From: Nitrososphaeria archaeon
GTDB taxonomy: Archaea > Thermoproteota > Nitrososphaeria > Geothermarchaeales > JDFR-13
Length of the DNA stretch: 64,000 bases
Direction: 5' to 3'
Assembly: GCA_027078545.1 (NCBI GenBank)
Contig: JALWXN010000001.1
Location: 1 to 64,000, forward strand
Shown: in pieces, positions 29,981 through 32,562 of the stretch
Layout of the letters: the number at the start of each line of letters is the position of its first letter
Numbering within the stretch: position 1 is the first letter of the stretch
Translations under genes and position numbers: made by a program
Notes under the pieces: model-generated
Told to the model about the DNA's origin: nothing
The model's database searches: none
The model's input: the letters and a program-made list of their open reading frames with translations, nothing else

Positions 29981-31018
29981 ATGAGGCCCACCAGGGAAGT
30001 GGGGATCTACGGCTATGGTGCGTATATCCCTAGGTACATCATAGAGAATAGGGATATAGCTGATCTCTGGGGGCGTGACGCCACTCCTATAAAGTCTAAG
30101 AGCTTTCCTAGCTACGACGAGGACACGATAACGATTGCCTATGAGGCCGCGTTGAGGGCTATAGAGTCCTCAGGCGCCGATCCATCTCTGATCGGGGCGG
30201 TCTTCATAGGGAGCGAGTCTAAGCCCTATGCTGTCAAGCCTTCGGGTACTGTGGTGGCGGAGGCCCTAGGCCTGGGTAGGAACATATTGTCGGCCGACTA
30301 TGAATTCGCCTGTAAGGCTGGTACTGAGGCTATGCAGACTGTTTTTGGCCTTGTCTCCTCGGGTATGATCAGGATGGGTCTAGCTATAGGTGCTGATACT
30401 GCCCAGGGTAGGCCTGGTGATGAGCTTGAATATACTGCTGCAGCGGGTGGTGCAGCCTATATAATCTCAAGGGTTGAGGATGGTGTGTTGGCTAGGCTAG
30501 AGGCTTCCTACACATATGTCTCGGACACCCCCGACTTCTGGAGGAGGAGTCTGGAGGAGTATCCCCGTCATCTCTATAGGTTTACGGGTGAGCCGGCCTA
30601 TTTCCACCACATCATGTCGAGTGTGAAGGGACTCTTCGAGGAGTATGGCTACAGCCCCTCCGACTTTAAGTACGCGGTCTTCCACCAGCCAAACTATAAG
30701 TTCCCTACCCGTGTAGCCAAGAAGCTGGGCTTCACTATGGATCAGATAAAGCCTGGGCTGGTGGTGGCCCTTGTAGGGAATACTTATAGCGGCTCGAGTC
30801 TACTTGGGCTTGCAGCCACCCTCGACGTGGCGGAGCCGGGTGACAAGATACTGCTCGCATCCTTCGGCTCCGGCGCTGGTAGTGACTCGATGGTCTTCGA
30901 GGTGACTGATCTCATTGAGGAGAGGAGGATGAGGCCCCCGGTCTCCAAGCTTATCTCTAGGATGATTCCGGGTGACTATGCGACCTATGCGATGTTTAGG
31001 GATATCCTGAGGAGGTGA
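29981..31018 (+). CDS. mvaS: Hydroxymethylglutaryl-CoA synthase
   Basis: GSESKPYAVKP, EFACKAGT (catalytic Cys), FHQPN, GNTYSG, SFGSGAGSD. Confidence 0.95.
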   Translation: MRPTREVGIYGYGAYIPRYIIENRDIADLWGRDATPIKSKSFPSYDEDTITIAYEAALRAIESSGADPSLIGAVFIGSESKPYAVKPSGTVVAEALGLGRNILSADYEFACKAGTEAMQTVFGLVSSGMIRMGLAIGADTAQGRPGDELEYTAAAGGAAYIISRVEDGVLARLEASYTYVSDTPDFWRRSLEEYPRHLYRFTGEPAYFHHIMSSVKGLFEEYGYSPSDFKYAVFHQPNYKFPTRVAKKLGFTMDQIKPGLVVALVGNTYSGSSLLGLAATLDVAEPGDKILLASFGSGAGSDSMVFEVTDLIEERRMRPPVSKLISRMIPGDYATYAMFRDILRR

Positions 31019-32175
31019 GCCTCATGGGTATGCCTGTAATAGCTGGGTATGGCTTCACCCGGGTGGGTGAGCATTGGGATAGGGGTTTGAAGGACTTGTC
31101 GCTGGAGGCTATTGAGAAGGTCTTCGAGGGCATGTCCTCGGTTGAGATAGATGCTATATATGTGGGGACGGCCCTCTCAGGGTTCTACGAGCTACAGCTC
31201 TCACTGGCTAGCCACATAGCAGACCTGATAGCGAGGTTCGACGCATCTGTATCCAACTTCGAGGCTGGCGCGGCCTCCTCGGCCCAGGCTTTCTACAACG
31301 CCGCTCTCGGGATACTCTCTGGGATGTATAAGGCGGTCCTGGTTGGTGGTGTTGAGAAGATGAGTGATGAGCTTCCCGCCCCTAACTATAGGGGTGTCTC
31401 ACTGGTGGAGGATAGTTTCCTCGTGAACTATTCGGGCATGACCGAGATCGGTCTCCACGCCCTCCTAGCAAAGATGTATCTCTCGGAGTATGGCCTCGAG
31501 GAGCCATTGTACTCATACCTCCCGGTAAATGAGCATGAGAATGCGTCTAGGGCTGGGCATGCACAGTTTAGGAATAGGATTACGTATGACATGGTTAGGT
31601 CGGCATCGCCCGTCTCTGATCCCTTGACGATCTTCGATGTGACTGCTCCTGGGGATGGGGCGGCCTATATACTGTTGATGGATAGGGAGTATGCCGACTC
31701 GCTGGGGGTTGAGTATGTCAAGCTCCTTGGTATGGGTGCGGCTGGGCAGCCAGCCAATCTCTTTGACAGGGCCTCGCCCCTATTCTTCTCTGCCAGTTCG
31801 AGGGCTGTTGAGAAGGCTCTTGAGAAGGCTGGTGTGGAGACTGAGGATATTGGTCTGCTGGAGATGTATAACCCCTCATCGATCTCGGGCGTCCTCGTCC
31901 TGGAGTCTCTAGGACTGGCCGATAAGGGTGGTGCTGGGAAGCTATTGGAGAGGGGATACTTCTCACTCTCTGGTGAGCTGCCTGTGAACACCTTCGGGGG
32001 TGCCAAGGCCAGGGGTGATCCTAAGGGTGCCACTGCTGCGTATCAGTTGGCCGAGGCCGCTATGCAGCTCCTTGGCAGGGCTGGTGATAACCAGGTTGAT
32101 GGTGCTGAGTATGCCCTCGTCCACTCTATGGTGGGCCTGGATATATCTGCATATGCCTTTGTCCTGGGGGTGTAG
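31015..32175 (+). CDS. Thiolase-fold protein lacking the catalytic Cys and His residues
   Basis: GGVEKM, DGAA, VNTFGG thiolase scaffold; EAGAASS, EMYN and GDP replace ExACAS, EvHD and GHP; no Cys in the protein. Confidence 0.85.
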   Translation: MSLMGMPVIAGYGFTRVGEHWDRGLKDLSLEAIEKVFEGMSSVEIDAIYVGTALSGFYELQLSLASHIADLIARFDASVSNFEAGAASSAQAFYNAALGILSGMYKAVLVGGVEKMSDELPAPNYRGVSLVEDSFLVNYSGMTEIGLHALLAKMYLSEYGLEEPLYSYLPVNEHENASRAGHAQFRNRITYDMVRSASPVSDPLTIFDVTAPGDGAAYILLMDREYADSLGVEYVKLLGMGAAGQPANLFDRASPLFFSASSRAVEKALEKAGVETEDIGLLEMYNPSSISGVLVLESLGLADKGGAGKLLERGYFSLSGELPVNTFGGAKARGDPKGATAAYQLAEAAMQLLGRAGDNQVDGAEYALVHSMVGLDISAYAFVLGV

Positions 32176-32178
32176 GGG

Positions 32179-32562
32179 ATGACGGAGGTTAGTGACTGGA
32201 GGTTTAGGAGGTATAGGTATAGGCTTATAGGGAGTAGGTGTAGGGAGTGTGGTGAGACCTCATACCCTCCACGTAGGCGCTGCTCTAGGTGTGGAGGGGC
32301 TACCGAGGAGTATCAGCTGCCGAGGAGGGGTAGGGTGGTTCACTACACCCTGTTGAAGGCCCTCCCCACTAGGTATAACCATTATAGGCCGTATTTCCTC
32401 GCCGTCGTGGAGCTCAGTGATGGTACTAGGGTTATCGGTATGCTTACCGATGTGGATGAGCCTAGTGAGGGTATGGAGGTCGAGGCTACCCTTAGGAAGC
32501 TCTATACCTATGGCGAAGATGGCAAGATCATCTATGGGGTGAAGTTTAGGCCGGTGCTCTAG
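32179..32562 (+). CDS. DUF35 Zn-ribbon/OB-fold protein
   Basis: CRECG..YPPRRRCSRC, YGVKFRP; third gene of the HMGCS-thiolase cluster. Confidence 0.93.
   Translation: MTEVSDWRFRRYRYRLIGSRCRECGETSYPPRRRCSRCGGATEEYQLPRRGRVVHYTLLKALPTRYNHYRPYFLAVVELSDGTRVIGMLTDVDEPSEGMEVEATLRKLYTYGEDGKIIYGVKFRPVL

Follow-up and report, generated by a model that had tools for sequence, protein, structure and literature searches.

Archaea reportedly cope with an unfavourable thiolase reaction through a complex of thiolase, HMG-CoA synthase (HMGCS) and a DUF35 protein that channels acetoacetyl-CoA, and this complex, described by Vogeli in 2018, is said to be present in almost all archaeal genomes. Here, we scrutinized the corresponding locus in a 64,000-nucleotide window (the whole stretch of DNA analysed, positions 1 to 64,000 of contig JALWXN010000001.1, assembly GCA_027078545.1) from a Nitrososphaeria archaeon, which we take to be a small, hot-spring-type organism, with a genome of 1.24 Mb that is 92% complete. 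In the ORF list of this window, HMGCS, a thiolase-like ORF and DUF35 form three codirectional genes with tight junctions. The thiolase-like protein has lost its catalytic residues. It is probably, with a likelihood of roughly 0.7, a pseudo-thiolase retained to serve HMGCS as a structural and CoA-site partner, acetoacetyl-CoA being derived from paralogous thiolase/DUF35 pairs.

The closest described systems are the complex-borne acetoacetyl-CoA thiolase of Methanothermococcus thermolithotrophicus (6ESQ/6ET9; Vogeli et al. 2018) and the thiolase PFC_04095 of Pyrococcus furiosus (7YVY). The window protein shares their fold (TM-score 0.94 to 0.95, 31 to 35% identity), and its locus shares the HMGCS-thiolase-DUF35 gene order, with the thiolase gene between the other two, as well as intact partners; many noncatalytic positions are also common to these proteins. 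Unlike these thiolases, it lacks the Cys nucleophile of CxS, the His and Cys of HDxF and the His of GHx, having A86, Y285, P287, and D335 instead. Alignment to the solved structures 7yvy and 6esq, together with direct reading of the codons, bore out the substitutions that an earlier note on this DNA had described. EAACASG has become EAGAASS, with the nucleophile replaced by Ala86 (its codon, GCG, is two or more base changes away from TGY); EVHDCF has become EMYNPS (His to Tyr285, Asp to Asn286, Cys to Pro287, and Phe to Ser288); and GHP has become GDP (His to Asp335). The H284A mutation in the ACAT unit of an archaeal complex abolished HMG-CoA formation, and H294Y in Pseudomonas PfACAT nearly abolished thiolysis (PMC12960953). 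The window protein carries the same His-to-Tyr change as the latter mutant and is additionally missing the nucleophile. Hence, with these residues in place of the catalytic ones, the thiolase half of the channelled reaction is impossible for this protein. Its AlphaFold2 (AF2) model (predicted local distance difference test score, pLDDT, 94) nevertheless superposed on 6et9/6esq with a root-mean-square deviation of 1.5 to 1.6 Å. No NCBIfam model scored above its cut-off: the M. thermolithotrophicus-type equivalog NF053570 gave 219 bits against a cut-off of 600, and the best model, PRK06064, gave 282 bits against 420.

The partners of this protein are intact. As the earlier note had stated, HMGCS keeps its catalytic Glu, Cys, and His, along with Asn270, and DUF35 keeps its four Cys (Table 1). 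These four Cys were invariant among 24 DUF35 orthologs, Glu, Cys, His, and Asn were kept in all 82 of the partner HMGCS proteins examined, and both operon order and tight gene junctions were preserved in orthologous loci. Given that the genome encodes a single HMGCS and one HMG-CoA reductase, isoprenoid lipid synthesis begins with this operon. The count of zero Cys in the thiolase-like ORF was also correct, against one in HMGCS (the catalytic residue) and four in DUF35, but it is not a statistical oddity: 123 of the 580 stop-to-stop frames of at least 300 aa in this genome (21%) are likewise Cys-free. Genome-wide Cys use was very low, at 0.53% in long frames. What matters is that the catalytic residues have been lost.

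Purifying selection on the thiolase-like gene was strong. Between this genome and a 97%-identical relative, the ratio of nonsynonymous to synonymous substitution rates (dN/dS) was 0.043 (dS 0.40), compared to 0.043 for HMGCS and 0.049 for DUF35 in the same pair; dS was saturated in deeper pairs, so this comparison alone is reliable. Relative to HMGCS, the thiolase-fold protein diverged 1.5 to 2.0 times as much in Cys-less operons and 0.5 to 0.8 times as much in closely related Cys-keeping operons, in comparisons whose pairs are not independent. Constraint on the protein therefore appears relaxed but not lost. Thirty-seven positions were at least 90% conserved in Cys-keeping and Cys-less groups alike and eight, including C86, H335, and F288, in the Cys-keeping group only, while this comparison of the two groups revealed no newly conserved pocket residue in the Cys-less one. 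Such a pattern is consistent with a protein without catalysis that has kept its fold and contacts, and not with a shared new active site. With all catalytic residues lost, the fold kept, purifying selection acting and an active partner retained, the protein has the features of a pseudoenzyme subunit. As its catalytic residues are lost yet selection is strong, a noncatalytic partner of HMGCS is the most likely role.

Loss of the nucleophile was widespread. Every HMGCS-operon thiolase examined in the window's own family (13 genomes, 7 genera) lacked this Cys, position 86 being occupied by A or G within the genus of the window and by D, G, or E in other genera, with H, Y, N, or F at the His285 position and D, N, H, or Y at the His335 position. 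The combination of Y285, N286, P287, and D335 was confined to one genus-level clade, and in related lineages, the former catalytic positions drift among A, G, D, E, S, H, Q, and T. One genome of the family encodes two complete HMGCS-thiolase-DUF35 operons, one thiolase having Asp for Cys and the other being fully canonical (ESACASS/HDCF/GHP), with Glu, Cys, His, and Asn kept in both HMGCS proteins. The operon thiolase of a sister family in the same order retains Cys, that of another family of the same class has His at the nucleophile position, and that of a Nitrososphaerales-like family of the class is fully canonical. Scanning species-representative genomes, we found Cys-less HMGCS-adjacent homologs in Bathyarchaeia (Ser), Chloroflexota (Asp, Glu, or Gly), Thermoplasmatota including Methanomassiliicoccales (Asp or Gly), Caldarchaeales/Wolframiiraptor (Asp or Glu), and Njordarchaeota (Gly). 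The Cys was absent from 72 of the 145 nearest full-length representatives of 50%-identity clusters. In an HMGCS-centred sample of the phylum, with about one genome per family, a thiolase-fold gene adjoined HMGCS at 36 loci, keeping the Cys at 13 and lacking it at 23; the latter included forms with a four-residue deletion at the site, beside HMGCS-DUF35 fusions of ~505 aa. Trees required five to six changes of state between Cys-keeping and Cys-less forms. A single ancient origin of all Cys-less forms was rejected by the approximately unbiased (AU) test (p 1.8e-8), for which the Cys-less group was defined by the trait after the first tree had been seen.

HMGCS-DUF35 fusions (~500 to 535 aa) with a thiolase-fold gene upstream occurred in many families of the phylum, at 13 recorded loci. 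In eight families, the thiolase-fold gene at fusion loci carried the four-residue deletion, located precisely where the nucleophile would lie, together with YDQS and DGNP motifs; at three loci, the thiolase was fully canonical and at two others, Ser replaced Cys. Four further loci, from three families, had HMGCS or the fusion with no thiolase-fold gene within ~2.8 kb on either side.

If the operon protein serves as a scaffold, another thiolase is expected in Cys-less genomes. The search for other thiolases proposed in the earlier note recovered two canonical ones in this genome (EAACASG/HDCF/GHP), each followed by its own DUF35, and one of these pairs adjoins an acyl-CoA dehydrogenase gene. 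The canonical paralogs are 28 to 31% identical to the operon protein. At least one canonical thiolase was found in 12 of the 13 family genomes, in 11 confirmed by sequence and in one from collinear matches only. An alternative thiolase was also found in the family with the Cys-to-His replacement and in a family of the same order with the HMGCS-DUF35 fusion. Elsewhere, alternative thiolases of Cys-less lineages were either archaeal-type or bacterial type II; they were found in three Methanomassiliicoccales genomes (bacterial type II, ~320 bits), in one Wolframiiraptor and one Anaerolineae genome, and in 11 more genomes, of which eight are single-contig, belonging to seven other families. In three Cys-keeping relatives, the operon thiolase was the sole thiolase. 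Given the canonical thiolases in the genome, the window case is not paradoxical.

A further locus of this genome (contig C4, ~715.0 to 718.4 kb) holds two adjacent genes for Cys-less thiolase-like proteins, with the motifs YVGGGTG/EVYDPF/GNP in one and GGDG/EVDDRF/GYP in the other; two DUF35 genes follow. Most genomes of the family carry this cluster of four genes, which is found in other families as well (10 further loci recorded). The YD-P-F motif is reminiscent of Tyr-based aldolases.

Of the two alternatives offered in the earlier note, the favoured one is thus the structural subunit with acetoacetyl-CoA supplied otherwise, for which the two canonical thiolase/DUF35 pairs, purifying selection, the faster relative rate, and the drifting catalytic positions all argue. 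The thiolase-fold subunit would be correctly folded and would no longer make or cleave acetoacetyl-CoA. It would be retained because HMGCS is active only within the HMGCS/thiolase/DUF35 assembly, to which the subunit would contribute CoA binding, by forming one half of a joint CoA-binding chamber, and the docking surface for DUF35. By itself, archaeal HMGS is inactive, and HMGS and ACAT have a CoA site fused at their interface (PMC12960953, citing Vogeli 2018), a reason for keeping a dead subunit. The two canonical thiolase/DUF35 pairs encoded elsewhere in the genome would presumably feed the pathway, and the acetoacetyl-CoA that they make would arrive at the HMGCS site as free, unchannelled substrate. 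A predicted complex of HMGCS, DUF35, and the thiolase-like protein scored 0.83, against 0.68 for a control in which HMGCS was replaced, a result that counts neither for binding nor against it.

Several points weigh against this proposal. That the three proteins still assemble and retain the CoA chamber is something we infer. Across the genus-level clade, Y285, N286, P287, and D335 are invariant down to 56% identity, possibly reflecting function and not packing. Without channelling, free diffusion would have to drive the endergonic thiolase step, something that the 2018 model had sought to make unnecessary. No other thiolase was seen in G004, a 0.7-Mb metagenome-assembled genome of the same genus, and searches of G091, a complete 1.3-Mb genome from another family, with Thiolase_N and an archaeal thiolase query detected no Cys-bearing thiolase. 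These searches of G091 matched only its operon copy, in which Gln replaces the Cys, and a protein resembling ST0096 (ENTSGSG, ELHDMA, GHP) whose gene is accompanied by a DUF35 gene and lies away from the HMGCS operon. These cases raise the question of the acetoacetyl-CoA source in the few genomes without a Cys-bearing thiolase.

The second alternative of the earlier note, Tyr/Asp-based chemistry, was not supported. Under this explanation, the protein of this genus would be a repurposed enzyme, its Tyr285/Asp335 pocket having acquired a different activity on a CoA thioester (aldolase-like, decarboxylase-like, or acyl-CoA-sensing) at or near the mevalonate entry, for example an aldol or retro-aldol step like those of Ltp2 and Sal, or a decarboxylation. 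Such an activity, which would alter how carbon enters the archaeal mevalonate pathway, is unlikely. HDCF is equivalent to YDHF of Ltp2 and YDCY of Sal, and Y285 occupies the position of the catalytic base Tyr in these motifs and in YDCF of TbSLP (PMC12329534); all 11 sequences compared, with identities as low as 56%, have Y-N-P and GDP, Ltp2 and Sal likewise work with a DUF35 partner, and many of the 37 positions still conserved probably line the pocket. However, the catalytic pairs of Ltp2 and Sal are not reproduced: Sal needs the Cys of YDCY, which is Pro287 here, the conserved Asp of the motif is Asn286, and Tyr344 of Ltp2 corresponds to Asp335 by spacing (+50 residues) only. The His-to-Tyr change left PfACAT nearly inactive. 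Checking the conservation of the Tyr/Asp substitutions gave a divided answer, as they are fixed within the genus-level clade and variable in sister genera, which have H, N, or F at 285, N, H, or Y at 335, and D, E, or G at 86, so that no chemistry is common even within the family. The lack of any new residue common to Cys-less forms argues against a common new chemistry. Moreover, the protein nests in the tree of archaeal operon thiolases, apart from Ltp2 and Sal, and its raised relative rate is expected after loss of function.

Alternatively, the protein might make an unconventional contribution to acetoacetyl-CoA synthesis, either as a heterodimer with a canonical paralog that brings a live site to HMGCS, or by helping the Cys114 site in both condensations. 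Dimerization is obligatory for thiolases, and two canonical paralogs, both paired with a DUF35 of their own, are encoded in the genome, while G091 and G004, in which no Cys-bearing thiolase was seen, hint that some lineages manage without one. This contribution is nonetheless improbable, since the paralogs share so little identity with the operon protein and nothing in this genome requires it. We also know of no precedent for HMGCS making acetoacetyl-CoA.

An artefact of sequencing or assembly affecting the catalytic codons, or a decaying pseudogene, has nothing in its favour except the missing residues and can, on the available sequences, be considered excluded, because proteins 90 to 99% identical from other, independent assemblies carry identical residues at the catalytic positions, the Ala86 codon is at least two changes from Cys, the reading frame is open over its full length, dN/dS is low, and Cys-less thiolase-like genes lie beside HMGCS in every family genome and in many other lineages.

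The thiolase-like ORF comprises 386 aa if read from GTG 31015 and 383 aa if read from ATG 31024. Judging by its context, ATG 31024 is probably the true start, lying 6 nt downstream of the Shine-Dalgarno-like GGAGGTGA; the closest orthologs are also 383 aa long and begin with MG(M/L)PV.

Table 1. Features of the HMGCS/thiolase-like/DUF35 operon, in window coordinates
Feature	Position	Strand	Basis
HMG-CoA synthase (HMGCS), 348 aa	29972..31018	+	NCBIfam NF003274, 497 bits (cut-off 244)
HMGCS catalytic tetrad, intact	E82 30215-30217; C114 30311-30313; H238 30683-30685; N270 30779-30781	+	Residues read in sequence
Junction: Shine-Dalgarno-like GGAGGTGA, including the HMGCS TGA stop, then ATG 31024	31011..31026	+	Sequence read
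Cys-less thiolase-fold protein, putative pseudo-thiolase subunit	31015..32175	+	Pfam Thiolase_N and Thiolase_C_1; AF2 model
Ala86 codon GCG, where the CxS motif has its nucleophilic Cys	31270..31272	+	Alignment and codons read
Y285-N286-P287-S288, replacing the H-D-C-F motif	31867..31878	+	Alignment and codons read
Asp335 codon GAT, replacing the His of GHP	32017..32019	+	Alignment and codons read
DUF35 scaffold protein, 127 aa, zinc ribbon C21/C24/C35/C38 and OB fold	32179..32562	+	Pfam zf-ChsH2 and OB_ChsH2_C

In this organism, as in roughly two thirds of the phylum's sampled families, the thiolase half of the complex is catalytically dead, and it is likewise so in Bathyarchaeia, Methanomassiliicoccales, Caldarchaeales, and Chloroflexota. 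Hence, channelling cannot feed lipid synthesis in these organisms. Together, they offer a natural experiment on the noncatalytic contribution of the thiolase subunit and on the dependence of HMGCS on this subunit for CoA binding. Automatic annotation is also affected, as such genes are routinely called acetyl-CoA acetyltransferase.

Our literature search returned no paper on a Cys-less thiolase in an archaeal HMGCS operon, and many nonoperon archaeal AACT homologs lack the catalytic motif (Hoshino & Gaucher 2018). Among solved structures, ST0096 of Sulfolobus tokodaii (4YZO), the third-best structural match of the AF2 model, is also an archaeal thiolase fold without the nucleophilic Cys (Ser in the alignment). 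Unlike the window protein, it keeps HD and GHP; we found no paper on its function. A separate comparison asked whether ST0096 is the thiolase homolog of the HMGCS operon in a complete 2.7-Mb genome from family f26, presumably Sulfolobaceae; the operon protein of that genome scored only 140 bits to 4YZO, so the two are different genes. Ltp2 (6OK1), Sal (9MYR), and TbSLP (5AB4-7) resemble the window protein in having no nucleophilic Cys and a Tyr as the first residue of the HDCF-equivalent motif. In contrast to their Y-D-H-F or Y-D-C-Y/F, the motif here is Y-N-P-S, P287 standing at the position of the Sal Cys and the Ltp2 His, and the second catalytic residue of the Ltp2/Sal group is absent. The partner of Ltp2 and Sal is a hydratase, whereas that of the window protein is HMGCS. 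Nor does the protein group with them by fold, 6ok1 and 9myr ranking 25 to 49 in the fold search, far below archaeal ACATs.

The same tripartite architecture of HMGS-like, ACAT-like, and DUF35 proteins is found in the Friedel-Crafts acylases PhlABC and MucABC and in P. fluorescens PfACAT/HMGS-DUF35 (PMC12960953, PMC6392133). In these complexes, one thiolase-fold subunit is catalytically dead, yet kept and needed for assembly. The window operon is their mirror image: in PhlABC, MucABC, and the PfACAT complex, the HMGS-like subunit is dead and the ACAT-like subunit keeps its Cys, whereas here HMGCS is intact and the ACAT-like subunit is dead. Furthermore, those complexes left the mevalonate pathway, while the operon described here holds the only HMGCS of its genome.

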